A stretch of 64,000 nucleotides of DNA, taken from assembly GCA_951406725.2 (NCBI GenBank), contig OX597839.1, positions 19,716,001 through 19,780,000 on the forward strand, in the 5' to 3' direction. Below, piece by piece: positions 5,409 through 63,419 of this stretch. Every line of letters begins with the position of its first letter. Positions within the stretch are counted from its first letter, which is position 1. The notes beneath the pieces are model-generated. The model had not been told where the DNA came from and searched no databases. It saw only the letters and a list, made by a program, of their open reading frames with translations. This DNA comes from Octopus vulgaris (lineage: Eukaryota). The translations under genes were made by a program, and so were the position numbers.

Positions 5409-6500
5409 CTAGTTAGATTCCGCTCCCCTCGTTTGTAATTTATGCTGGGCTCTTGGTTCAACAGCTATTGTGAAAAGGAGGTTTAGTTCCTTTTTGAAGA
5501 CATCTGCTTTCATCTTATATAAATTTCTTAATTTTCGTGTCAGGGCATTGAAGAGCTGTGGGACTTTGAACGCTAAGCTATTGTAGTTCCTGATCCTGAA
5601 TTTAGATGGAGTGAATAGTACCTTTTGTACAAGTGCTCCAAGTTCTGGCATTTAAAACATAAAAATGTTCCTTCTCGAGCCATGCGAGGCTCATAAGGGC
5701 TGGTTTCCCGGTTTCAGTGGCGTAGAAATTTCCCACCTGGACGGGACGCCGGTCCATCGCAAGATTACTCATTTTTGCCAGCTGAGTGGACTGGAGCAAC
5801 GTGAAATGAAGTGTTTTGTTCAAGAACACAATGCATCGCCCGGTCCAGGAATCGAAACCACAACCTTACGATCATGAGTTCAACACCCTAACCACTAAGC
5901 CACGCGCCTCCACTGTATTTGTATAACATTCAATGCCGAAATTAGGTACTAGCCCTTCTAGAACTTTCCATGTGTAAATTATTACATATCTGTCGCTCCA
6001 AGAGTAAAGTCGTAGGTTTTTCAGCCTCTCCCTGTAGTTCATCTGCTGCCCTGTTTCAGTCTTTTTAGTGTAATGCCGTTGGGCCACTTGAAGCTCCACT
6101 GTTAGTTTAACACGCTGGAGTGACCAACGCTGAGAGCAGTAGTCCACCACCATCACCACCACCACTATCGCTACAACCATTCACCACAGCCACCAACGCC
6201 ACTCTGGAAAAGTGTGTGAAGTGGTTTCGCTAAAGTCTGCCTACAAGTCCTGAGGAGAATAGCTGGGAAGCCATCGGCCCCAGTTGCTGAGCTTGAGCTC
6301 ATTTCATCTATGGCAGCTGCTTCATCTGTCTCCTCAATGTTGATGCAATCGATGATTGGCGCCTTTTTTATTAGTGCTGAAATATTAAACAATTCAGTAG
6401 GGATTTTTTTTTAAAATCTGCATTTGTTCAAGCGGGGATTTGAAGACACTTTTAAATTGCTCACTAAGTACCTCACTTATACTTTCTGGGTTCGCGGTCA
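5409..6500 (-). mobile_element. degraded CR1/L2-group LINE ORF2 remnant with RT core deleted, interrupted by a SINE
   Basis: minus-strand peptides SATGADGFPAILLRTC..LAKPLHTLFQS (pre-RT), QRHYTKK..NYRERLKNLRLYS..RYVIIYTWKVLEGLVPN and NSLAFKVPQLFNAL..VFKKEL (C-terminus). Confidence 0.8.
5652..5913 (-). mobile_element. tRNA-derived SINE (family V)
   Basis: A-box TGGCTTAGTGG and B-box GTTTCGATTCC on minus; same family as 17383-18660. Confidence 0.85.
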
Positions 6501-7306: not shown

Positions 7307-8536
7307 ATGGCAATGAAAAATAACAAAATTTTGGAGTGGGAAATCATACCACCTAAAAAGTGGTTAAAAGACCGTGAAGATAGTGTTGAGAACCTACTCC
7401 AAGGCACTTGACACCATCGCCCTATTCGAAAAGACGGCAATTGAAAAGGAGTTGGAAGAGTATTTGCCAACAATTAAATTCATTTCAGGGGTGTCAAATA
7501 TGCAACGGTGTGGTTGCTATTTGACACCCCTGAAGAGGCTTGCAAATTTGCTAGCAAACCCCTGGAGGGTAAGGAAATCTTATTCCTGCCCACGTACAAA
7601 AAAAAGAAATTGATGAAAGCTTGGATTTGCGGACTGCCACCCGACATAGAACCCGAGTGGATAGAGGAGACTATCCGCCGGGGTCTGGGTGACAGCGAAA
7701 CTAAACTCCTCAATGTAAAAGTTCTTCCTGCGGCTGCTTGGGTTGGGTCAAAAGCAATTTTGACCCTGTGGACCCAATCAGCCAATCTGGTTCTTCCAGA
7801 TTTTTTGAAAATGGCCGGGTGCAGGTACCCGGTGATGCTTGAGGCTCGCCCCCCTAAGTGTCATCGGTGCTTGGAGTCCGGCCACATAAAGAAGAACTGT
7901 CCTCGGGAACAAAATAGGATCCCGGAACAGTTAAGTAAAACCCCTCTAGAAGAGGGAACGATAACGGCCGAGAAAGCAGAGGACTCCTCAAACAGAGGCC
8001 GAAAGAGGAAGGTGAGCAACAATGGGTGCTCACCAAAGGATAATAGGGATGAGGAGAGGAAGGCGAATCTTCCAGCCACGGAGGAGACGCACCCTCCCTC
8101 AGTTGAAAAGGGAAAAAAAAAGAAAAAGAGGAAGAAAAACGGGACATTACCGGCTGTCAGTGTAGCACCGGAATGTCCCGGAACTACGTCGGTTGGGGTT
8201 GTGCCACCGACAAGAGAAGGAATACCGTTGGCGGAAACTGTGCCGCCAACGAAAGAACTGAACGTATTGGTCCTCTTCTATAGAGGAGGAGAAATTGAAA
8301 AAGTGATGGAAGAGCACTACAAGGGAGCACCTTTAGCCTTTACACAGGACCCCGAATGGCCTCCGCAGGTAGCTGTGGAGGCCGTGGCGTTCGACGTGAC
8401 GCTTGGGCTAAAGGAGCTCAATGAAGATTATAACTTGGTCCCGGGCGACGCGAACTCGGAACTTGACTACGTTCTGAGGGAGGCGTGGTTGATGGTGGAG
8501 GGCGCGGGCACAAGCTATTTCGAGGACGATATGTAA
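7307..8536 (+). CDS. L1/Tx1-type ORF1 (gag-like RNA-binding protein with CCHC zinc knuckle); two compensating frameshifts near 7368 and 7487
   Basis: ORF 7508-8536 has RRM-like KAWICGLPPDI and CHRCLESGHIKKNC (CX2CX4HX4C); ATG 7307 is in the same frame; the intervening segment reads in the 7374 frame. Confidence 0.8.
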
Positions 8537-8552
8537 TTATTGAACTGTTATT

Positions 8553-8678
8553 ATTAGTAATGGACTTAAGTCCAAAAATTGAAAAATTGTAAGAGGATTA
8601 ATACCTCGTTTTGTATTAATAATGGACTGCTAAGTCCAAAAATTGGAAAAATTGTAAGAGGTTTAATACCTCGTTTTG
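8553..8678 (+). repeat. about 63-bp tandem duplication in the element 3' UTR
   Basis: AATGGACT..AAGTCCAAAAATTG..GTAAGAGG.TTAATACCTCGTTTTGT occurs twice. Confidence 0.9.
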
Positions 8679-9309
8679 TGTTTATCTTTAAAAAGAACAA
8701 TGTTTTAGAGAAGCGAAAGTCGGCGGGCGCTTTTTGTCTTCTCCCATCCTTATCATCTTTCTTTCATTATCATTCACCTCATTAATGTCCTCGTCCAGCC
8801 CGCAAAGCTAACTTAATCTGTGTACTGCCTTTATGGCAAATGTTTTGAAATAAAGTAGCTTGCTAACCAGCCACATGGTTCCGGGTTCAGTCCCACTGCG
8901 TGGCATCTTGGGAAAGTGTCTTCTGTATAGCCCCGGGCCGACCAATGCGTTGTGAGTGGATTTGGTAGACGGAAACTGAAAGAAGCCTGTCGTATATATG
9001 TATATATATATATATATATGTGCATGTGTATGCATTTGTGTGTCTGTGTTTGTCCCACTAGCATTGCCTGACAACCGATGCTGCTGTGTTTACGTCCCCG
9101 TCACTTAGCGGTTCGGCAAAAAGAGACCGATAGAATAAGTACTAGGCTTCCAAAGAATAAGATCTGGGGTCGATTTGCTCGACTAAAGGCGGTGCTCCAG
9201 CATGGCCGCAGTTAAATGACTGAAACAAGTAAAAGAGTAAAGAGTAATTCCACATCTCTTAAATATAGAACTGTATCAAAAGCGGTTGTCAAGCAGTGGT
9301 GGGAGACAA

Positions 9310-9614: not shown

Positions 9615-9800
9615 GTGAATAATCGTTAGCACACCTGGCAAAATGCTTAGCGATATTTCGTCCGCTTTTCCGTTCTGAATTTAGATTCCGCTTTTCATTT
9701 CTATCGGCGCGATAAACTAAGTACCAGTTGCATAATAGGGTCACTATTATAAAGATACCTCTTGCCCAGAATTGCTGGCTCTGTGCCAAAATTTGAAATG
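9615..9800 (+). mobile_element. degraded family M SINE
   Basis: similar to GTTAGCAC..AAATGCTTAGC..TATTTCGTC..CGATAAA.TAAGTACCAG. Confidence 0.6.
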
Positions 9801-17309: not shown

Positions 17310-18660
17310 GGTGACGGTGCCACATTCTCGGTCGCAAAATCGTAGTCTTAATTTCCGAACGGAGCGATGCATTGTGTCCTTGAGTGGAGGCGCGTGGCTA
17401 AGTGGTTAGGATCTTGAACTCATGATCATAAGATTGTGGTTTCAATACCTGGACTGGGTGATATGTTGTGTTCTTGAGCAAAACACTTCATTTCATGTTG
17501 CTTCAGTTCACTCAGATTGCAAAAGTGAGTAATCCTGCGATGGACTGGCGTCCTATCCAGGGAGGAGTAATATACCCCAGAGGAACCAGGAAACCAGCTC
17601 TATGCTCCTAATGGAGTGATGTGGGCTATAGACATACTCTACAATATTGTAATGTATAATATAGATATTGTGGAGACACATGACTTAGCGGTTAGAGTGT
17701 TGGACTCCTGATTGTGAGATTGTGGTTTCGATTCCTGGACTGGGCAGTGCATTGTGTTCTTGAGCAAGACACTTCATTTCATGTTGCTCCAGTCCACTCA
17801 GCTAATGGTTAGGATGTTGCACTCATGACTTCTAGATTGTGGTTTCGATTCCTGGACTGGGCAGTGCATTGTGTTCTTGAGCAAGACACTTCATTCCATG
17901 TTGCTCCACTCCACTCAGCTAATGGTTAGGATGTTGCACTCGTGACTTCTAGATTGTGGTTTCAATTCCTGAACTGGGTAGTACATTGTATTCTTGAGCA
18001 AGACACTTCATTTCACCTTGCTTCATTTCACCTCAGCTGGCAAAGATGGGTAATCCTGCGAAGGACTGGTGTCCCATCCAGGGAGGAGTATATACGCCAG
18101 AGGAACCAGGAAACCAGCTCTATGCTCCTTATGGAGTGATGTGGACTATAGACATACTCAGCAATATTGTAATGTATAATATAGATATGGTGGAGACACA
18201 TGGCTTAGTGGTTAGAGTGTTGGACTCCTGATTGTAAGATTGTGGTTTCGATTCCTGGACTGGGCAATGCATTGCATTCTTGAGCAAAACCCTTCATTTC
18301 CATGTTGCTCCAGTCCACTCAGCTAATGGTTAGGATGTTGCACTCATAACTTCTAGATTGTGGTTTCGATTCCTGGACCGGGTGACGCGTTCTGTTCTTG
18401 AGCAAAACCCTTCATTTCATGTTGCTCCATTCCACTCAGCTGACAATTATGAATAATCCTGTGACAGACCGACATCCCGTCAGGGTGGGGAATTTATGCG
18501 CCATGAAAAGATTTGGCACGAGCCTAAAAGGTAACTTTACTTTTGAAGGTGCACGGCTCAGTGGTTAGGGTGTTGGACTCGTGATCGTAAGACTTGGAGT
18601 TTCGATTCCTGAACCGGGTGGCGCGTTGTGTTCTTCAGCAAAACACTTCATTAGATATTT
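17310..18660 (+). repeat. tandem cluster of about 7-8 family V SINE monomers with a nested about 520-bp duplication
   Basis: GGTTAG..GATTGTGGTTTCGATTCCTGGAC repeated; spacer 17612-17668 duplicated at 18133-18188. Confidence 0.85.
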
Positions 18661-22133: not shown

Positions 22134-22194
<61 letters not shown>

Positions 22195-22590
22195 CAAGTC
22201 GCTACCAGGAATCGAACTCGGAATTTTGGGGTTAGTAGCCCGCGCTCTTAACCATTACTTATTTCTTTATTACCCACAAGGGGCTAAACACAGAGGGGAC
22301 AAACAAGGACAGACATAGGTATTAAGTCGATTACATCGACCCCAGTGCGTAACTGGTACTTAATTTATCGACCCCGAAAGGATGAAAGGCAAAGTCGACC
22401 TCGGCGGAATTTGAACTCACAACGTAACGGCAGACGAAATACGGCTACGCATTTCGCCCGGCGTGCTAACGTATCTGCCAGCTCGCCGCCTAGTGGAACT
22501 ATGCCCACGGGCATATGGCGTAGTGGTTAAGAGCGCGGGCTACTAACCCCAAGATTCCGAGCTCGATTCCAAGCAGTGACCAGAACGATA
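22015..22590 (-). mobile_element. tRNA-headed element with hammerhead-like tail and an inverted copy of its head
   Basis: tRNA-like head on minus 22195-22258 and on plus 22508-22582; (TAA)n; degenerate hammerhead 22042-22085. Confidence 0.6.
22259..22490 (-). mobile_element. family M SINE (tRNA head, Meta-like core, LINE-derived tail A)
   Basis: GGCGGCGAGCTGGCAG..GAGTTCAAATTCC..GCCTTTCATCCTTTCGGGGTCGATAAATTAAGTACCAG..CCCCTTGTGGGTAATAAAGAAATA. Confidence 0.9.
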
Positions 22591-22689: not shown

Positions 22690-22852
22690 ATACAAAAGGT
22701 TTGCCTCCTTGGTATGGCGAGATTAATAAGGAAAATAGTAGATAGCTGAAAGGAATAGATAGCATGGTACCGTAGGCTGCAGGTAGCAAGCCTTCTTGTC
22801 ATATAAGACTCCAGGAGCTCCAACAAAACCTGTGATAAAGATAAATAATAAT
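22690..22852 (+). mobile_element. 3' end of R4/Dong-like element in TAA repeats
   Basis: QKVCLLGMARLIRKI; matches 24009-24140. Confidence 0.65.
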
Positions 22853-23155: not shown

Positions 23156-23169
23156 AAATAAACTAATAA

Positions 23170-24165
23170 TAATGAAAGGAACACTAAAAAAAGAGACCGA
23201 GATCAGTATACTGGCAGTGCAAGATCAAGCTTTGGTCACGAACTGGAGGTTCAACCTTTCGAATGAGCAAGTGTTTCCGTTGTGGATGAAACCATTGCCC
23301 GTATCACAGAGGAATGCCCTAGACTTGTCTAAAGCCACTACAAGTCGTGGCGACACGGTCAGGTAACGAAAGTGATACACTGGGAACTTCGAAATGTTGG
23401 GGCTAGAGAGGAGCAAGATGTGGTATGAGCGCAAACAGTAGAGAGTGGCGGAGTCTGGGACTTGCAAAATCCTGTGGGATTTCTTAATCCAAAAAGATCA
23501 GGGACTAGAACATAACAGACCGGACCTTTTGGTGGTCGACAAGATGCACCATATGTGCTATATAGTTAATGTTGCATGCCCATTTAACACACGAACAGTA
23601 GAAAAGGGAAGGCGAAAAAACTAGATAAATACTAGATAAACCCTCTTAAGTACAAAATAGCCCGGCTACGGAAAATGAAGGAGATGAAGATAGTGACAAT
23701 TATTGTTGGGTCCTTGGGGGCAGTATCAGACGGTCTGGCAGAAACGTTAGCACGCCGGGCGAAATGCGTAGCCGTATTTCGTCTGTCGTTACGTTCTGAG
23801 TTCAAATTCCGCCGAGGTAGACTTTGCCTTTCATCCTTTCGGGGTCGATTAAATAAGTACCAGTTACGCATTGGGGTCGATATAATCGACTTAATCCGTT
23901 TCTCTGCCCTTGTTTGTCCTCTCTGTGTATAGCCCCTTGTGGGTAGTAAAGAAATAGGTATCAAGTGGATTATAAAGGAAATTGGAACAGAGTGCCCAGT
24001 AGAACTGTTACAAAAGGTTTGGCTCCTTGGCACGGACAGAATAATGAGGAAAGTATTAGCTGAAAAGAGCGAATGGCATGGTAACGTAGGCTGCAGGTCG
24101 TAACCCCGTTACGCATGCAAAACTCCAGGATTTCCAAGAAAAACTTTGGTAAAAAGAAATAATAA
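23170..24165 (+). mobile_element. R4/Dong-like non-LTR retrotransposon 3' remnant (restriction-like endonuclease), with a family M SINE at 23735-23961
   Basis: ETEISILAVQDQAL, KILWDF.IQ.D..LEHNRPDLLVVDK, IVGSLGAV, LLQKVWLLGTDRIMRKVL; TAA flanks. Confidence 0.8.
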
Positions 24166-24567
24166 TTATAATCCTTTCTACTGGAGGTAAAAATCCTCAA
24201 ATTTGTTGGGCGGGAACTAGTAGATTATATCGACTCCAGTACGCAACTGGTACTTAATTTATCGACCCAGAGAGAAGAAAAACCAAAGTCGACCTCGGCG
24301 GAATTTGAACTCAGAACGCAGCGGCGGACGAAATACCTATTTCTTTACTACCCACAAGGGGCTAAACACAGAGAGGACAAACAAGGACAAACAAACAGAT
24401 TAAGTCGATTACATCGATCCCAGTGTGTAACTGGTACTTAATTTATCGACCAGGAAAGGATGAAAGGCAAAGTGAACCTTAGCGGAATTTGAACTCAGAA
24501 CGTAACGGCAGACGAAATACGGCTACGCATTTCACCCGGTGTGCTAACGTTTCTGCCAGCTCGCCGC
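24165..24567 (-). mobile_element. family M SINE dimer
   Basis: junction AAAGAAATAG/GTATTTCG at about 24336. Confidence 0.85.
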
Positions 24568-24780
24568 TTAACGATGATGATGATGATAAAATTTACATAT
24601 ACACGCAAGAAAGAATAGCCGTGGCACCAAGCAGTGCATTCATATTACGTAAAGCAATGCTTTCAATAGAATAACAGAAACGGAAACCAATGAACTAAAC
24701 CTATGGAAGGAAACACAGAGCCGGGCTCCGTTGTGCACTGAATGCACGCAATAAAATTAAGGATACTAAAATAATAGCAA

Positions 24781-33209: not shown

Positions 33210-33774
33210 ATGTATGTATGTATGTATCTATGAGTGTATGTTTACTTTATTACTAATTACTCTCTTCCAAGAACATTTTCACTCACTCTTAGCTCTTAGC
33301 TTCCCATACATTTTACTCATGTGTCTATCAGCGTCATAGACAGAATACTTTCACTTTAGTCTTCCTCAAATCACTGTCGCTATTTACTTTCATTTTATTC
33401 ATTGCCCACTGTGTGTGTGCGTTTGCGTGTGGTGTAAACCAGACTAAGAAAAGCATTTGACACACACACCAGAATGTGAGTTTTCTGTAAATTTTGCTTA
33501 ATTGGAGTTTAAATTTTAAAAACTGGACCTGGCATGACGCGATGCATTGTACTCTCAAAAATGCCAGGTAAATTGTAATTGAAGAAATCCTATATTGTAG
33601 ATTTGTATAACTCCCAAAGGGAGGCAGATAAAATCTGCCTTTTATAATAAGAGATATACATATGATAGAGAGAAAGGATAGACAGATAGATAGACAGATA
33701 GACATGTCAACATATAGACATCTCGACAAATAGACATCTCGACAGATAGACATCTAGAACTTATCTGTAAATAT

Positions 33775-33930
33775 AATATGTGACAATTATTTGGTAACCA
33801 TGATAAAACTCCGAGTTTCGGATGTCGGGGCGGAAGTCCACGCCGGCATTTCTTCAGTTATCGGGCCATCGGAAAAAAGACATCCAAAACTCGGAGTTTC
33901 ATCATGACTACCTAATAATTGTCACATATT
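33775..33930. mobile_element. foldback element containing a minus-strand hammerhead motif (Penelope inverted-pLTR-like)
   Basis: arms 33775-33826 and 33879-33930; minus GATAA CTGAAGA..GAAA CTCGGAG TT TTATC. Confidence 0.6.
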
Positions 33931-34008
33931 AATCATATTCACAGATAAATTCCTCCATTTACATAATATCGAGGTCTCATTCTTTTTTTTGACTTGCCAT
34001 TTCTATGA

Positions 34009-36714: not shown

Positions 36715-37291
36715 TCTTTTCTACTCAAGGCACAAGGCCCAAAATTTTGGAGGAAGGGGTCCAGTCGATTTCATGGACCCCAGTACGTAACTTAATTTAT
36801 CGACCCCCGAAAGGATGAAAGGCAAAGTAGTCCCTCGGTGGAATTTGAATTCAGAATGTAAAGACAGACGAAATACCTATTTCTTTATTACCCACAAGGG
36901 GCAAAACATAGAGGGGACAAATAATGACAGACAAACGGATTAAGTCGATTTATCGACCCCAGTGCGTAACTGGTACTTAATTTATCGACCCCGAAAGGAT
37001 GAAAGGCAAAGTAGACCTCGGTGGAATTTGAATTCAGAATGTAAAGACAGACGAAATACTTATTTCTTTACTACCCACAAGGGGCTAAACATAGAGAGGA
37101 CAAACAAGGACAGAGAAACGGATCAAGTCGATTACATCGACCCCAGTGCGTAACTGGTACTTAATTTATCGACCCCGAAAGGATGAAAGGCAAAATGACC
37201 TCGGCGGAATTTGAACTCAGAACGTAACGGCAGACGAAATACGGCTACGCATTTCGCCCGGTGTGCTAACGTTTCTGCCAGCTCGCCGCCT
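36715..37291 (-). mobile_element. family M SINE trimer (head, tail A, tail A, tail B)
   Basis: junctions at about 37059 and 36876. Confidence 0.85.
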
Positions 37292-37889
37292 TGATGATGA
37301 CAATGATGATGATAATGACAATTACAATGATGATGATAATGATGGTGATGACAATGATGATGATGATAGTGGTGATGATGATGGTGGTGATGATGATCAT
37401 TATCATGATAGTGGTATGACGATCGTAATGCTGAAGATGATGATCGTGATGGTAATGGTGATGGTGATGATGATGATGATGACGGTGATGACATTCTTGA
37501 TAATGATGATACTGGTGATGTCGACAATACCGCTGCCACAGCTGCCACTTATGATGATGATAATGTGTCGACAGATGGAGCTGTTGTAGTTGCTTTTCTA
37601 ACTAATATCAAGCTGACCGATTATTATTCTGATCAAATCTCCATTCCAGCCATGGCCATGCCCTCTTTAACAATGTGCCGGCAACATTATCCATCAGGCC
37701 ATCTATGTATCACAGTTAATGAATATACACACTCGATAGGCCAGTTTCTTTAGTAACTGTTCCGATATAACATATCGTATGGATGCGATGCGTTAAAAAC
37801 ACAATATGTATATCAGATAGGGGCGAAAAATCCCCCCAGTAAAAAAGATAAACACCCAAACGGCTTCATCTACAAAAGCATATACGTAG

Positions 37890-38264: not shown

Positions 38265-38997
38265 TTATACACATGTATATATCCATAGATACATACATAC
38301 ATATATATATATATATTATATATCTACATATATTATATACATCTATATATGCATAGATACATACATATATACATATATATATAAACACATATATAAACAC
38401 ACACACATACTAACATATATATGTCTGTATGTGTATATGTATGTATATATATATGGATGGGTGTGTGATTATATATTAGACACAGACATATATAGACAGA
38501 TATGAATACATGTTCACATACATACATAATATTCAATGTTTCACACAATTTAAACGGATGAGTAGCAGTTAATTATTTTCTCCTATAACTACTTACTAAT
38601 CAAACTACACGAGGAGAGAAAGAGAATTCCTTATTATTTCAAATATTGTAAATTTAAAAACGAGAAGTGTAAATCAGTTTAATGCAATTATTGATGGTAT
38701 CAACGGCGCCAGTAAAAGTGAATGTCTCATTAACTGAAATCGTTTAGACTTAATTTTTTCCAATAAAATGCAGTACATGCTTCAAAAACAATGAAGAACG
38801 AAGTCATATGATACCAATATGTACTCAGGTTTCCGTAATTTCTGGAAACGAAATCAGATCTACGAACTATTGATACTATAGTTTTGGTGCTCACATAATT
38901 TAGAATTTCTTGTCACATTTTGGCTATCATACTATCAAGCAATTCATTGTACTTCCTGATTTTTGTTTCTGTTGATTACGCATAGCAATGCATTTCA

Positions 38998-40777
38998 TTA
39001 TTTCTTTACAGCCCCCAAGGGGCTAAACACAGAGGGGACAAACAAGGACAGACAAAGGGCTTAAGTCGATATACATCGACCCCAGTGCGCAACTGGTACT
39101 TAATTTATCGACCCCGAAAGGATGAAAGGCAAAGTCGACCTCGGCAGAATTTGAACTCAGAACGTAAAGACAGACGAAATACCTATTTCTTTACTACCCA
39201 CAAGGGGCTAAACACAGAGGGGACAAACAAGGACAGACAAAGGGCTTAAGTTGATATACATCGACCCCAGTGCGCAACTGGTACTTAATTTATCGACCCC
39301 GAAAGGATGAAAGGCAAAGTCGACCTCGGCAGAATTTGAACTCAGAACGTAAAGACAGACGAAATACCTATTTCTTTACTACCCACAAGGGGCTAAACAC
39401 AGAGGGGACAAACAAGGACAGACAAAGGGCTTAAGTTGATATACATCGACCCCAGTGCGCAACTGGTACTTAATTTATCGACCCCGAAAGGATGAAAGGC
39501 AAAGTCGACCTCGGCAGAATTTGAACTCAGAACGTAAAGACAGACGAAATACCTATTTCTTTACTACCCTCAAGGGGCTAAACACAGAGGGGACAAACAA
39601 GGACAGACAAAGGGCTTAAGTCGATATACATCGACCCCAGTGCGCAACTGGTACTTAATTTATCGACCCCGAAAGGATGAAAGGCAAAGTCGACCTCGGC
39701 AGAATTTGAACTCAGAACGTAAAGACAGACGAAATACCTATTTCTTTACTACCCTCAAGGGCTAAACACAGAGGGGACAAACAAGGACAGACAAAGGGCT
39801 TAAGTCGATATACATCGACCCCAGTGCGCAACTGGTACTTAATTTATCGACCCCGAAAGGATGAAAGGCAAAGTCGACCTCGGCGGAATTTGAACTCAGA
39901 ACGTAAAGACAGACGAAATACCTATTTCTTTACTACCCTCAAGGGGCTAAACACAGAGGGGACAAACAAGGACAGACAAAGGGCTTAAGTCGATATACAT
40001 CGACCCCAGTGCGCAACTGGTACTTAATTTATCGACCCCGAAAGGATGAAAGGCAAAGTCGACCTCGGCGGAATTTGAACTCAGAACGTAAAGACAGACG
40101 AAATACCTATTTCTTTACTACCCTCAAGGGGCTAAACACAGAGGGGACAAACAAGGACAGACAAAGGGCTTAAGTCGATATACATCGATCCCAGTGCGTA
40201 ACTGGTATTTAATTTATTGACCCCGACCCCGAAAGGATGAAAGGCAAAGTCGACCTCGGCGGAATTTAAACTCAGAACGTAGCGGCAGACGAAATCCCTA
40301 CTTCTTTACTACCTACAAGGGGCTAAACACAAAGAGATAAACAAGGACAGACAAACGGATTAAGTCGATTATATCGACCCCAGTGTGTAACTGCTACTTA
40401 TTTAATCGACTCCGAAAGGATGAAAGGCAAAGTCGACCTCGGCAGAATAAAAAATGTGAAGTTTTAATTATTTTCTGAGATTTTACAAAAACAACAAAAA
40501 TAAGACACGAAATACCGCTAAGCGTTTCGCTCGGCGTGCTAACGTTTCTTATTTCTTTATTGCCCACAAGGGGCTACACATAGAGGGGTAAAAGAAGGAC
40601 AAAGGGATTAAGTTGATTATATCGTCCCCAGTGCGTTACTGATACTTAATCTATCGACCCCGAAAGGATGAAAGGCAAAGTCGACCTCGGCGTAAATTGA
40701 ACTAAGAACGTAAAGACAGACGAAATAGCGCTAAGCATTTCGCTCGGCGTATTAACGTTTCTGCCAGCTCGCCGCCT
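38998..40777 (-). repeat. tandem array of family M SINE bodies, 185-bp period, about 9 units
   Basis: AAGG(G)GCTAAACAC at 39017, 39202, 39387, 39572, 39757, 39941, 40126, 40317; full head at the 40777 end. Confidence 0.95.
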
Positions 40778-41380
40778 CAGAAATGCATTTCCATGCGTTC
40801 TCTGTCGGATTTATGACCAATAAAATGTTTGTGGACAGTGATTGATCAGATTTAATTCCGGCTTAATGCGCACAGCTTTAAGCAATCCGCAACGGCCATT
40901 TATAGAGAATGCTTCGAATTATTTTCTTCATATTGAAAATCAACTACGATGCTTAGTTAAATAATCATAGTCTGGGCGAAGATCTCCAGATCTTCACATC
41001 TGTTCCTTAACCCTTGCGAAGAGGTCAAAGATGCCCCTCATCATTTATACTGATTTGTCCCTTATACCTTAAATGCACACTCAAACATTGTGTTGTTTCG
41101 ATTGATTTTAAGTCAAGATCACACACTAAATATTTTATTACGATATAGAGTTTATATTTGACCTCAATCTCTGAACAAATAAGATCATGGCTTTTCCTAA
41201 CAGCTGATCAGATTTGAATAGTTAAACTCCAGAGCAAAATTAAGGCAACCACACCGGTTTCAACGAAACGGGATTCTTTATACTACAGAGTCTAAAATAT
41301 GATAATGTTGGGTTAATTTTTATAGAGATACAGTAATGCAATGTTATTTGTTTTAAAAAGAATGAACGTATCGCCATCAC

Positions 41381-41521
41381 CTCATCGATGTTAGTGGCTT
41401 TTCGTGGACCACTTAACAGATGATAGTCAACATATGCACCAGTTTCAATAAGGGTATCAACATTATGGCTTGTAGTTGTTACCGAGTATTCAACTTGAGC
41501 ACCTATCCGTTGAAATGTATA
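41381..41521 (-). CDS. candidate host exon (141 bp, phase 0-0), product unknown
   Basis: ttcgtctctgacttacAG acceptor; YTFQRIGAQVEYSVTTTSHNVDTLIETGAYVDYHLLSGPRKATNIDE; GAG/GTGATG donor; only one open frame. Confidence 0.4.
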
Positions 41522-41599
41522 CTGTAAGTCAGAGACGAACTGTCCGCGATAGCATTTCATGCGATAAAATTTAGCGTTTAGCTATAGTTTGTCTTTGAA

Positions 41600-41990
41600 G
41601 GCGTCGAGTTGGCAGAAACGTTAGCACGCCGGGAGAAATGCTGAGCGGTATTCTGAGTTCAAATTCCGCAGAGGTTGACTTTGACTTTCATTCTTTCGGG
41701 CTCGATTAAATAAGTACCAGTTACGCACTGGGGTCGATGTAATCGACTTGATCCGTTTCTCTGTCCTTGTTTGTCCTCTGTATGTTTAGCCCCTTGTGGG
41801 TAGTAAAGAAATAGGTATTTCGTCTGCCGCTACGTTCTGAGTTCAAATTCTGACGAGGTCAACTTTGCCTTTCATCCTTTCGGAGTCGATAAATTAAGTA
41901 CCAGTTGCGTACTGGGGTCGATCTAATCGACTAGTCCCCTCACCAAAAAAAAAATAAATTCATGCCTTTGAGCCTCTAGTAGAAAGTATA
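41600..41990 (+). mobile_element. family M SINE dimer (tail A then tail B)
   Basis: junction AAAGAAATAG/GTATTTCG at about 41814. Confidence 0.85.
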
Positions 41991-42254
41991 GTTTGTCTAA
42001 GTTCAGTATGAAATACTAAAATTAAAATGCATTTTTTCTAAAATATCCTTAAATTATATGACGCCTAATTTGGTGTTCCCATACATATGAGCATACAGAC
42101 ATACTTGCATACATACCATATATACACGTATGTTCATATATACATGTCTGTATGTAGTGTATATATATATATATATAATTTATTCAATGAACACGATTGA
42201 CCTAAACACCTGCCCTTCCTCATACGCATAAACAGAAATATGCTCGCTCACATG

Positions 42255-44827: not shown

Positions 44828-44924
44828 ACAACAACAACAGCAACAACAACAACAATTATAATAATAATAAAAATAACAATAATAACTACAATAACAGCGA
44901 TAGTAATATTAATGATGATGGAAA

Positions 44925-46279
<1,355 letters not shown>

Positions 46280-46542: not shown

Positions 46543-47030
46543 TGTGTGTTTGTGTTTGTCCCCCTAGCATTGCTTGACACCGATGCTGGTATGTTTACGT
46601 CCCCGTCACTTAGCGGTTCGGCAAAAGAGACCGATAGAATAAGTACTGGGCTTACAAAGAATAAGTCCCGGGGTCGATTTGCTCGACTAAAGGCGGTGCT
46701 CCAGCATGGCCACAGTCAAATGACTGAAACAAGTAAAAGAGCAAAAGAGTAAAAGAGTATGTATGCATATGTTTTATTTGTTAAATTGTTATTATATATA
46801 TATATATATATATCAATATATATATACATATATATAGGCGCAGGAGTGGCTGTGTGGTAAGTAACTTGCTTACCAACCACATGGTCCCGGATTCAGTCCC
46901 ACTGGGTGGCACTTTGGGCAAGTGTCTTCTACTATAGCCTCGGGTCGAACAAAGCCTTGTGAGTGGATCTGGTAGACGGAAACTGAAAGAAGCCCATCGT
47001 ATATATATGTGTGTGTGTGTGTGTGTGTAT
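46326..47030 (+). mobile_element. family K SINEs (full 46326-46760; 5' half 46836-47030)
   Basis: A-box TGGCTGTGTGG, B-box-like GGTTCAGTCC, CORE-like CTTGGGCAAGTG, internal microsatellite. Confidence 0.9.
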
Positions 47031-47479
47031 TGTGCTAACGTTTCTGCCAACTCGCCGCGTATAAGTAATTATAAATCACATACAAATGTTTCCATTATTG
47101 GCCATAATAAAATTACAAAAATCCATTGTTGGGGGGGAGGGAGCCACGCAGTGGGACTGAACCCGCAACCATGTGGTTGGTTAGCAAGCTACTTACCACA
47201 CAGCCACTCCTGCGCCTATACATATATATATGTGTAATTCGTGTAATTTCTTATCGATATTCGGATTCCCATTTCCAATAAGACTTATTGGGTTTGTGTA
47301 TCCTAATATACAAAATTACGATGAAGAGATTCTTGGTCAAAAACAATGAATTTTTATGATTTTATTATGGCGAAGAATTGAAATATTTCTTTGCGATTTA
47401 TAGTTAATATCTATTACTTATTATACAAAAAAAGTATAGTTGTTATAAGGAAAAAAAATCAGATATTGAACCAAGCGGG

Positions 47480-50615: not shown

Positions 50616-50841
50616 GGTGGTGGTTATGGTGGTGGTGGTTGTAGTAGTAGTAGTAGTAGTTCTTTTAATGTTGTTATTTTTAATGCTATCATTATTGTGA
50701 ATGTCATAAATAGTACTATTTTTGCTTTTGGCATTAGTATTATTGTTATTGTTGTTGTTGTTGTTATAGCTATTGGTATCATCGTATCATCATGTTTGTT
50801 ATTGTTATCATTGATATTATATATATTGTTATTATTATTTA

Positions 50842-51025
50842 AGGCGGCGAACTGACAGAATCGTAAGCACACCGGGCGAAATGCTTAGCGGTGTTTGGTC
50901 TGCCGCTACGTACTGAGTTCAAATTTCGCCATGGTCGACTTCGCCTTTCATCCTTTCGCAGTCAGTAAAAAACAGTGTGGTCGATGTAAACTTCACGGCC
51001 TTGTGCCTTCATTAGAAAGGATTAT
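50842..51025 (+). mobile_element. family M SINE monomer with tail B
   Basis: head GGCGGCGAACTGACAG; tail GGCCTTGTGCC..TAGAAAGGATTATT. Confidence 0.75.
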
Positions 51026-51462: not shown

Positions 51463-51492
51463 ATCATTATTATTATTATCATGATCATCATC

Positions 51493-52811
51493 AGTGAGTG
51501 AGAGAGCAGCGCATGCCATCAAAGTGATACTGGGGTAAAATATACGAAGCCCAGTATGCTCATCATGAATAACCGTCTGATAAAGGTACACCAGGAACAT
51601 TCAGCATAACCATATGTACGCGACATGGTGATCTCATATAAAGATAAACAGCTCATGACCTTGCAGGTGGGGCCCCGTTGGAATTTTTTTCATTTTGAGT
51701 AGCCCATCTCGCTCAAAAGGTCCCTGAATAAGGGTTGTTCAAGGATGTTGCACGAAATACCGATGTTTTATTCAGGGACCTTTTGAGCGGGATGGGCTAC
51801 TCAAAATGAAGAAAATTCCAACGGAGCTCTACCGGCAAGGTCATGTAGGGCCCCGTTGGAATTTTCTTCATTTTGAGTAGCCCATCTCGCTCAAAAGGTC
51901 CCTGAATAAGGGTTGTTTAAGGATGTTGAGCGAAATACCCATGTTTCCAGAGGTGAATTATTCAAACCCCAAAGAATTCCTCTCAACACATGGCTATGAT
52001 GATACCCCCACTACTTCTGCTCGTGATCGGATATGCACATATTGTCAGCCACTAAGGGACATGCTCAACTGGTTACGGTCAAGCAAATGACAAGCAAATC
52101 TGTAGTATTGAGCCAAAAATTTGCTGTTAGCCTATCTTTTATACCAAGACAAAACAATCTCAAAAAAATGTACAAACATTTCCAATCAGTTATGATCAAA
52201 AGCCATGATAGCCATTGCCTGGTACTGCATCAGGGCATTATTATTATTATTATTATTGAGTGAGAGAGCAGTGCATGCCATCAAAGTGACACTGGGGTAA
52301 AATATACGAAGCCCAATATACCCATCATGACTACCCGTCTGATAAGGGTACACCAGGCACATGCATCACAACCATATGTGCGCGACATGGTGATCTCATA
52401 TCAATATAAACAGCACATGACCTTGCAGGTGGGGCCCAGTTAGAATTTCCTTCAGGTTGAGTAGCCCATCCCGCTCAAAAGGTCCCTGAATAAGGGTTGT
52501 TTAAGGATGTTGAAAGAACCACCCATGTTTCCAGAGGTGAATTATTCAAACCCCAAAGAATCCCTCTCAACACATGGCTATGATGCTCCCCCACTACTTC
52601 TGCTCGTGATCAGAGATGCACATATCGTCAGCCACTAAGGGACATGCTCAACTAGTTAAGGTCAAACAACTGACAAGCAAATCTGTGGTATTGAGCAGAA
52701 TATTTGCTGTAGCCCATCTTTTATACCAAGACAAAACAATGTACATGATAACACTTCCAATCAGTTAAGATCAGAAGCCATGAGAGCCACTGCCTGGTAC
52801 TACATCAGGGC

Positions 52812-52815
<4 letters not shown>
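51493..52815. mobile_element. two tandem copies of an about 560-bp non-coding element in TAA repeats (51493-52238, 52258-52815)
   Basis: both begin GTGAGAGAGCAG..GCCATCAAAGTGA and end GCCTGGTACT.CATCAGGGCATT. Confidence 0.85.
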
Positions 52816-52870
<55 letters not shown>

Positions 52871-54353: not shown

Positions 54354-54484
54354 GTAGAAAAAAATATAGTTTATATTCATGTAAATGAAGAAGACATGGA
54401 TTAAGACGTTAACAATTGTCTGCTAAAACGAATTCACAAACCCATCTCTTTTCCCCTCTGATGATTTTATGCTCATGTCGCATA

Positions 54485-54972
54485 AATTCCGCCGAGGTCG
54501 ACTTTGCTTTTCATCCTTTAGGAGTCGATAAATTAAGTACCAGTTGCGTACTGGAGTCGATCTAATCGACTGGCCCCCTCCTCAAAGATTTTGGGCCTTG
54601 TGCCTAGAGTAGAAGAGATTATTACATATTTATTCTTTTACTCTCTTCCGTGTTTTAGTCATTTGACTGAGGCCATGCTGGTGCACCGCTTTGAGGGGTT
54701 TTAGTCGAACAAATCGAGCCAGGAGTTATTTCTTAAGCCTAGTAATTATTCTATCGAACGCGTTTGCCGAACTGCTACATTTGGGGGATGTAAACACATC
54801 AACACCGATTGTCAAATGATGACGGGGGACAAACAGGCACAATGTTACACACACATAGATACACACACACACGTACCCCCATACACTCAGAGGCATATAT
54901 ATTATATATCGTGAAATTTGATTTAGTATTACTAAATTGAATTTTTCTCTGTAAGTTTGTAATCATATTCCC

Positions 54973-62307: not shown

Positions 62308-62407
62308 NNNNNNNNNNNNNNNNNNNNNNNNNNNNNNNNNNNNNNNNNNNNNNNNNNNNNNNNNNNNNNNNNNNNNNNNNNNNNNNNNNNNNNNNNNNNN
62401 NNNNNNN
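62308..62407. other. assembly gap (100 N)
   Basis: N run. Confidence 1.
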
Positions 62408-62936
62408 AAACACGCATCAACAGCTCAACACAGAACGTATGAAAATCCATGGAGCGTGACCAACAAGGAAGAATTATTACAACCACATGTAGCAGACAGT
62501 GGCGTCACCTAACGAGCTTTCTATAAATTTATCTCTGATATCCCAATTTAGCTGGAGATTATGACTATGGATTTTCCGGGATGTAAAAGCTAAGAAACTA
62601 CTTGAAACTTGAGATTGAATATCAAAACGGCAATTTCGAAACAGCTAGTTACAATTTGTGAATTTAATTAGTTCTCAACGAGATAATTGCTTCCCTTTGA
62701 TTAAATCTACCTTGATTTATCGTCGAATGCCATGCGGAAAACATTTAAGATATCCGTGTTTTAATTAGACTCTTTAATAAGCTTAGCTTTAATTTTAACT
62801 GCTAATATGCTATCGCTCCTAAGCCCTGATAACAATTAAGTTATATACGCCGTTTGTACCCCTTTTCTCAAAAGTACTCCCAATTTTAATTTCAGTTCAG
62901 CGACTTACTATTTTACATGCTAAGATTTGAACTGAA

Positions 62937-63419
62937 GGTGTTGAGCTGGCAGAAACGTTAGCACGCCGGGCGAAATTCGTAGCCGTATTTTGTCTGCCTC
63001 TACGTTCTGAGATCAAATTCTGCCAAGGTCGACTGTGCCTTTCATCCTCTCGAGGTCGATAAATTAAGTACCAGTTACGCACTGGGGTTGTTGTATTCGA
63101 CTTAATCACTTTGTTTGTCCTTGTTTGCCCCCTCTGTGTTTAGCCCCTTGTGGATAGTACAGAAATATGTATTTTGTTTGCCGATGCGTTCTGAGTTCAA
63201 ATTCCGCCGAGGTCGACTTTGCCCTTCATCCTTTCGGGGTCGATAAATTAAGTACCAGTTACGCACTGGGGTTGATGTAATCGACTTAATCACTTTGTCT
63301 GTCCTTGTTTGTCCCCTCTATGTTTAGCCCCTTGTGGGTAATAAAGAAATAAGAAACGTTAACACGCCGGGCGAAATGCTTAGCAGTATTTCGTCTGCAG
63401 CTACGTTCTGAGTTCAAAT
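62937..63419 (+). mobile_element. family M SINE trimer (third unit partial)
   Basis: junctions at about 63168 (GTATTT site) and 63352 (AGAAACG site). Confidence 0.85.

Follow-up and report, generated by a model that had tools for sequence, protein, structure and literature searches.

The array at 38998..40777 raises the question of why copies of one short element are joined head to tail at the same internal position. We analysed it within a window of 64,000 nucleotides of Octopus vulgaris (contig OX597839.1, positions 19,716,001 to 19,780,000 of the forward strand), a stretch of microsatellite-rich animal DNA in which the element, called family M here, occupies 13 loci and about 5.1 kb. A full copy is about 232 bp long and consists of a head, a central body and one of three tails. 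The head has A-box-like and B-box-like motifs with a 12-13-bp hairpin in between. ARAGORN recognised no head at its default setting, 2/6 at 80% score and 5/6 at 70% with inconsistent anticodons, and Rfam gave no match in 38900-42100. We take the central body to resemble Nin/Deu (the DeuSINE or Nin-domain superfamily). Tails A and B have a common CTTGT loop on stems that differ (CCC/GGG or GGC/GCC), the kind of stem-loop that would be expected of a LINE-recognised 3' end. Direct repeats of 10-15 bp flank five of the eight loci tested, three of these five in microsatellites; among 56 mismatched flank pairs used as a control, one reached 10 bp. Family M copies were matched by 182,925-483,006 contigs per public run, a tally of contigs and not a copy number. 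Family M is short, dispersed and present in at least 100 copies, with target-site duplications and a LINE-type 3' stem-loop tail, and is a very abundant, probably tRNA-headed SINE. Exact scans for the family pattern gave no match in metagenome, viral and prokaryote contigs, blastn gave none against phages, and a protein search with junction-spanning translations gave six candidates and no match among proteins of 14-104 residues.

Two positions inside the family's own head, J1 (GGTATTTCG) and J2 (AGAAACG), recur as joints. The array runs on the minus strand from 40777 to 38999 and consists of nine head-to-tail units, as counted in the assembly, within one 10-bp direct repeat; about nine had been proposed in the preliminary description. 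The 5' copy of this repeat (GAAATGCATT, 40782..40791, minus) and the 3' copy (38987..38996, minus), which begins with GAAAT as in the tail end, are likely a target-site duplication given the 1/56 control pairs of that length. The first unit (u1, 40550..40777, 228 bp) has a full tRNA-like head with A box, long hairpin and B box, followed by the body and tail A, and ends at J2. The second (u2, 40299..40549, 251 bp) starts at J2, shares a private G>A with u1 and carries about 55 bp of foreign A/T-rich sequence in place of 17 bp after GGTATTTCGT. Units u3 to u9 all start at J1. Six of them, u4-u9 (38999..40107), are 184-185 bp long and 0-4 substitutions apart, with variants common to neighbours in overlapping sets (u3-u6, u6-u9 and u7-u8) and with private changes in the last 20 bp of u9. 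Unit u3 (40108..40298, 191 bp) is a hybrid that is identical to u4 in its tail region and differs from u4-u9 by 8-12 substitutions, all within its diverged 5' half, so that an earlier count of seven near-identical units holds for six. Ahead of its filler, u2 agrees with u4-u9 and not with the adjoining u3. The pattern of u3-u9 fits an older unit whose two ends moved apart as a young unit multiplied between them by unequal exchange, and the later local growth proposed for the array core is supported. A simple local duplication of u1 was rejected for the array, u1 differing from u4 at 11 positions. The array itself is an ordinary local expansion, and the interesting object is the J1 joint.

Chains with the same joints are present at the four further loci where dimers and trimers had been described. 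On the minus strand, the dimer at 24172..24569 consists of a tail-A unit, J1 and a tail-B unit, and the trimer at 36716..37292 (tail A, J1, tail A, J1, tail B) lies in a 15-17-bp direct repeat within an ATC microsatellite. On the plus strand, the dimer at 41599..41987 (tail A, J1, tail B) lies in an 11-12-bp direct repeat and its first unit is without 16 bp directly after GGTATT, and the trimer at 62935..63417 (tail A, J1, tail A, J2) ends in a head only, cut by a TA repeat. An assembly gap of 100 N (62308-62407) lies 530 bp before this last trimer. Tail B closes three chains, as had been noted, and the rule of one complete head per chain with fixed junctions was supported. Solo tail-A copies were found at 22260..22491 (minus), inside a palindromic tRNA-like element of another kind, at the A box of one of its arms; at 23734..23961 (plus), in a decayed LINE coding fragment and followed by GGTAT; and at 45646..45880 (minus), within a TA repeat. 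A solo tail-B copy lies in an ATT microsatellite (50841..51021, plus) and a 5'-truncated one at 54484..54620 (plus), and two copies have a third tail type, one diverged (44905..45120, minus) and one old and diverged (9621..9800, plus). A diverged M-like body piece at 45128-45204 stands head to head with the copy at 44954, and another SINE is interrupted at the AC repeat by 27 bp from the family M head (47030-47060).

The window contains 18 tail-A ends. J1 comes next in 12 of them, J2 in 2 and other sequence in 4; with the array core counted once, the figures are 7, 2 and 4 of 13. The J1 joints lie at 24338/24337, 37061/37060, 36878/36877, 41813/41814 and 63167/63168 plus seven in the array, and the J2 joints at 40550/40549 and 63351/63352, within 1-2 bases of the junctions first described. 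All inner tail-A ends of chains are complete. All 14 joins of tail A to the family (9 with the array core counted once) hit 2 of about 180 possible re-entry positions. A second SINE with another tRNA head, of which a solo copy lies at 5696-5924, is present as seven clustered pieces, with units of 117 bp, at 17383-18652; its joints at 17803, 17920 and 18324 re-enter at the A box via a CAGC/TAATGG overlap and probably reflect local duplication.

To look beyond the window we compared the solo copy at 22258-22492 with the contigs of 4 of 24 listed public runs, one per organism code, the counts being lower bounds. Six RNA-labelled runs, which contained only 0.14-0.33 of the sequence words, were left out of this comparison and carry no weight either way. 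A 183-base back-joint equal to J1 was the deepest among the 15 joints listed (601 more) in 4/4 runs, with depths of at least 2380, 371, 2805 and 517 in at least 20, 18, 38 and 21 contigs (runs X14, X3, X5 and X9), and J1 is therefore a genome-wide joint. Another three of the listed joints also lead back to the tail end, from distances of 1, 15 and 16 bases, and probably represent J1 where the head-half has diverged. Loose ends past the tail numbered 645, 567, 954 and 468 records, with a consensus that ends in the J1 head-half in all four runs, and those breaking off at J1 numbered 401, 264, 565 and 270 and continue as tail A. The resulting ratios of 0.47-0.62, which are contig counts and not copy frequencies, are close to the 7/13 of the window. 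The base at J1 was G in 91%, 78% and 80% of the joint depth in three runs (X3 being without a figure), compared to only 28-34% of matched heads, a figure biased towards the query subfamily; since the share of G at the joint far exceeds that in heads, the joint is templated or restricted and not sampled from heads. J2 fell outside the 15 joints (601 more) and the 24 loose ends (1485 more) listed; the query carries a substitution 3 bases past J2, and its absence from the listing is thus no evidence against J2. As 14/14 joins fall on 2 of the roughly 180 positions and J1 is the deepest listed joint in every run, the joint pattern is not due to chance, and the random junctions that would have spoken against a fixed one were not seen. 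The feature is far more general than a description at the level of the window could show. A second class of chains was seen in the runs, with joints from 22491 to 22322, 22325, 22327 and 22360 in which a complete head comes after a copy whose tail is of another type; the commonest of these joints had 14-27 contigs per run. This class is absent from the window's loci.

J1, J2 and the insertion site at 22255 all come after TAGC or TGGC, as they would if the endonuclease of a partner LINE preferred the J1 and A-box sequence (TRGC^) and tail-A copies were cut into SINE heads. The head types could be read the same way. The GCCGTT type was found in 5/7 first units and in 0/7 independent post-J1 units (p = 0.02), as if the altered head were immune, and the available part of PMC13282606 reports that the sequence-specific LINE groups Dong-R4 and L1-Tx1 are active in Octopus vulgaris. 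However, the 4/4 tail-A ends outside the family lie in unrelated contexts without a common target sequence, and those at 23735, at 45646 and at the array flank show only a few bases of agreement with the tail or its read-through. Sequence-specific non-LTR elements insert nearly always at one target, and here 4/18 (4/13) tail-A ends are elsewhere. Nor did a LINE carrying tail A turn up, either in the window or in the 24 loose ends listed (1485 more). We consider such an endonuclease preference quite improbable, and a strictly target-specific endonuclease, which is how sequence-specific target-primed reverse transcription (TPRT) had been proposed, is unlikely because the four other tail-A ends sit in unrelated sequence. 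Decayed LINE 3' fragments with AAT repeat ends at 23160-24166 and 22691-22852 are a candidate partner for the microsatellite-targeted tail-B copies. Their C-terminal motif presumably resembles that of the restriction-like endonuclease LINEs (R4/Dong); Pfam gave no match for two short pieces of the fragment.

If all chains derived from a single dimeric master of the Alu type, a fixed pair of units with position-specific variants would be expected. The five chains of the window instead show five unit combinations. The tails of the first units at 36715 and 41600 are 1 position apart, yet they stand ahead of different units. At 36715 the middle unit differs from the third at 2 positions over the head-half and body (other pairs 2-32), whereas its tail differs from that of the first unit at 9 positions and is foreign to the locus; a simple local duplication of the first unit was rejected on these 9 tail positions. 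The heads before J1 at 24165, 36715 and 62937 are of the donor type. Doubleton variants were common to 3/14 same-locus pairs, one of them the first and second units at 62937 with two, and at least one was common to 28/196 different-locus pairs. Chains are mosaics of different subfamilies, and one ancestral dimer, which had been named as the finding that would overturn the earlier interpretation, is therefore excluded; the chains were re-formed repeatedly from different subfamilies. The proposed polarity of young tail-A copies inserted into older tail-B copies did not survive. The most diverged unit is the first one at the array and at 62937 (8 singletons in u1 of the array against 0-5 in later units, and 7 against 1 at 62937, the singleton count being reduced where a unit has close relatives in the window), and upstream units are not consistently less diverged. 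Insertion of tail B behind old tail-A ends was judged unlikely, as chains ending in tail B have tail-B-like flanks.

A more serious rival, although we regard it as unlikely on balance, is that several dimeric or trimeric masters were retroposed whole as in Alu, with J1 having arisen once or a few times and been inherited, mosaicism coming later from gene conversion and unequal crossing-over, and no self-targeting at all. A single direct repeat surrounds each whole chain at 36715, 41600 and the array, the G at J1 and the preceding GGTAG-type tail recur genome-wide, and both the donor-type heads on three first units and the lack of a consistent age polarity agree with it. Dimeric SINEs are known (PMC3531059; PMC10702118, both from the parts available), and in those such as Alu the chain can move as one unit (PMC3531059, available part), as is probable here. 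The evidence against several masters is that each chain has its own combination with the same tail subtype ahead of different units, that the middle unit at 36715 joins a local 5' part to a foreign tail, and that the deletion at 41600 begins exactly after GGTATT.

A circular RNA of 183-185 nt closed at J1, and copied by rolling reverse transcription into identical tandem units, was the other mechanism suggested beforehand, and it resembles non-LTR retrozymes, which likewise occur in animal genomes as tandem arrays of short units with a constant length. The constant unit length, the closing of a hairpin at J1 and the two doubleton variants common to the first two units at 62937 are compatible with it. 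However, family M has Pol III box-like motifs and LINE-type tails where retrozymes have a self-cleaving ribozyme, and no such ribozyme was found: Rfam gave no family for 38900-42100 at E values up to 5, and a hammerhead core motif was absent from both strands of the array. Circular folds were 5-9 kcal/mol less stable than linear ones, and the variants of the array form overlapping neighbour sets and not a star. Units of one chain differ at subfamily positions, and because the units are mixed and those after J1 are without the GCCGTT head that is common in first units, circles of a common RNA cannot give mosaics. We consider this mechanism very improbable, and the circular part of the proposed multimeric or circular RNA was not borne out.

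RNA folding placed J1 at or beside the loop of the head hairpin. A further possibility is based on the tail itself. For GGTAG and GGCAG tails (3/6 monomers), J1 was the best pairing site for the last 16 nt among about 200 windows, at -11.1 to -13.1 kcal/mol with 4-6 of 500 shuffled tails as good, and on this basis J1 is the apex of a tail-head hairpin. The tail could then act as a built-in guide, its last 16 nt base-pairing to the 3' arm of that head hairpin, whether in RNA or in target DNA, so that its 3' end is placed exactly at J1 and copies are ligated, template-switched or inserted there. As a joining of RNA or cDNA, this would involve the head hairpin of a second SINE RNA or of the molecule itself, a template switch or the ligation of a half cleaved in the loop, and a single insertion of the finished chain. 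We think either form improbable. The AG variant that pairs was found in 6/7 J1 tails and 0/2 J2 tails (p = 0.08), and joining of this kind would account for the donor-type heads and the mixed units. Chimeras of U6 and L1 are made by RtcB ligation. Template switching between SINEs is invoked in the available part of PMC4824008. Against it, J1 ranked only 7th, 14th and 35th as pairing site in the other 3/6 monomers, and end pairing, strong in 5/8 molecules starting at J1, was at most 0.04 in array u4, array u8 and the second unit at 62937. J2 forms no comparable tail-head hairpin, and both the local copying at 36715 and the DNA-level insertion at 22255 are left unexplained. Fold-back self-priming was rejected: it would yield an antisense copy, but the unit after J1 has the same orientation. 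If the guide reading is true, the SINE's own RNA dictates the joining site and so makes mosaic chains genome-wide, and the pairing tail variant is enriched because it promotes the joint.

The reading we tentatively favour, at somewhat less than an even chance, is that family M uses its own resident copies as homology-primed landing sites. Transcripts of J1-bearing loci would run through tail A into the next head-half (GGUAUUUCG...), and the 3' extension of this read-through RNA would anneal to the nicked strand of any resident copy, where the reverse transcriptase of the partner LINE could prime. The cDNA, being homologous to the target, would be joined in register at its 5' end. The product would have one head and units of 183-185 bp and would again yield read-through RNA, making the joint self-feeding. 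Whole chains were probably also retroposed, and the six-unit core at 38999-40107 would have grown later at the DNA level by unequal exchange or slippage. Insertion of R2Ol rose from 12% to 96-98% when read-through RNA could anneal to the target, and in R2Ol, R2Bm and R1Bm such RNA extending into the rDNA target gives in-register priming, with upstream homology aiding full-length 5' joining (PMC6530143, available part). Annealing-type 5' joining is described for zebrafish LINEs in the available part of PMC4760211. Those R elements are autonomous with site-specific endonucleases and an rDNA target, whereas the target of family M would be the non-autonomous element itself and its specificity partial; we infer that the same read-through priming and annealing may apply to a SINE and its own copies.

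Several observations favour homology-primed insertion. The GGTAT past the tail of the 23735 copy, reported earlier and confirmed here, stands in a target outside the family and suggests an RNA that reads on into the head-half. It is in frame with the host LINE fragment and could be native to the decayed LINE. A 6-bp GTATCA match around this copy was set aside as not significant, since 10/56 control flank pairs reach 6 bp. The second observation is the middle unit at 36715, which copies its neighbour over head-half and body and carries a tail foreign to the locus; later gene conversion between neighbours could also have made the two alike. The closely similar tails ahead of different units at 36715 and 41600 point the same way. 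The third is the recurrence of J1 depth and loose-end consensus in 4/4 runs, with G at the joint far commoner than in matched heads. The fourth is the first unit at 41600, which reads as GGTATT, a 5'-truncated insert and GGTATT again, the 16-bp gap right after GGTATT having the form of a short duplication with a truncated insert. The fifth is the copy at 22255, which was inserted at the DNA level into the A box of a foreign tRNA-like element (TGGC^GTAGTGG), with 4 bp lost, 9 bp of filler and the intact site kept in the other arm of the host. This host is a pair of short tRNA-like elements head to head (22190-22259 and 22500-22590) with a self-complementary 16-bp centre, each with an AAT repeat end. 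Against homology priming stand the lack of consistently younger upstream units, the donor-type heads at 24165, 36715 and 62937, which need an extra step replacing the head of the target, and the finding of common doubletons in only 3/14 same-locus pairs, with at least one also in 28/196 different-locus pairs. The match of the sequence before the filler in u2 to u4-u9 and not u3 also weakens a target-duplication reading. Ranked from one 64-kb window, too small to separate the first two, homology priming comes first, followed by several masters, pairing-guided joining, an endonuclease preference and circular RNA. These overlap in part, because a chain, once made, carries a promoter as well as a tail and can move in its entirety.

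SINE tandems are usually ascribed to local recombination or to insertion in the tail of a previous copy; here one head-truncating joint follows about half of the tail-A ends, a pattern found in four runs and at loci unrelated to each other. Related phenomena include self-inserting Zepp, the ligation of U6 to L1 and template jumping by R2. The closest chains described are the TSD1-(SINE)n-TSD1 multimers of the blood clam Scapharca broughtonii, in which, as in family M, one duplication surrounds the chain, a full tRNA head comes first and later heads have a fixed truncation. According to the available part of that source (PMC11481361), these arrays have 4-15 units, mollusc SINEs have conserved domains as here, the first and inner tails are truncated, about 3% of SINEs are affected and the authors invoke unequal recombination. 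Unlike these, family M has complete inner tails, the same joint across loci and runs, mixed subfamilies and about half of its tail-A ends involved. The SINE-derived satellites (sSats) of squamates consist of 115-180-bp repeats that derive from part of a SINE and stand in tandem, the terminal one being longer, with homogenisation in longer arrays (PMC10702118, available part), and u4-u9 are likewise near-identical tandem units from part of a SINE, with u1 and its full head as the longer terminal unit. The sSats are described there as homogeneous DNA-amplified arrays of up to 1000 units, whereas most family M loci are scattered dimers and trimers of mosaic make-up that have flanking duplications of their own. 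Nearly half of the copies of the jerboa Dip SINE are in chains of up to eight units (same source and part), a large share as here. Dip multimers are made of full-length copies and Alu is one fixed dimer, again from what is available of these sources, whereas later units of family M are without the A box and their composition varies. The DeuSINE or Nin-domain superfamily has a tRNA head, a conserved central body and exchangeable LINE-type tails (PMC4824008, available part), like family M if our assumption about the body holds. The repeat annotation of Octopus vulgaris gives 60.9 Mb of tRNA-Deu SINEs in 17 families (PMC13282606), and the available parts of these last two sources make no mention of chains in tRNA-Deu or DeuSINE families. 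Tandem SINEs are already known, but no account of one dominant, head-truncating joint fixed inside the head was found for this family in the open literature (Repbase and Dfam apart), where a 1994 octopus SINE paper may describe multimers.

If read-through annealing is true, a non-autonomous element gains a target preference without a specific nuclease, and it lands in occupied sites, where it leaves units without a promoter and starts 185-bp satellites. A direct route for the module exchange observed among SINE superfamilies would follow as well. Repeat annotation and age estimates that take the units as independent 5'-truncated insertions would be biased, and the size of family M makes the mechanism testable from one assembly. 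Other elements were seen in the window. One at 7308-8690 has a single open frame of 352 codons (the ORF at 7478) with a weak zinc knuckle (Pfam E 0.005, below the cut-off). Beyond the frame lies a tandem duplication of 65 bp, a second frame is lacking, and the element looks like a non-autonomous LINE derivative. Two related elements lie between ATT repeats at 51475-52833, the first with an internal inverted duplication at about 51654-51909, and isolated imperfect palindromes of 170-195 bp at 1978-2148 and 33757-33952 are MITE-like.
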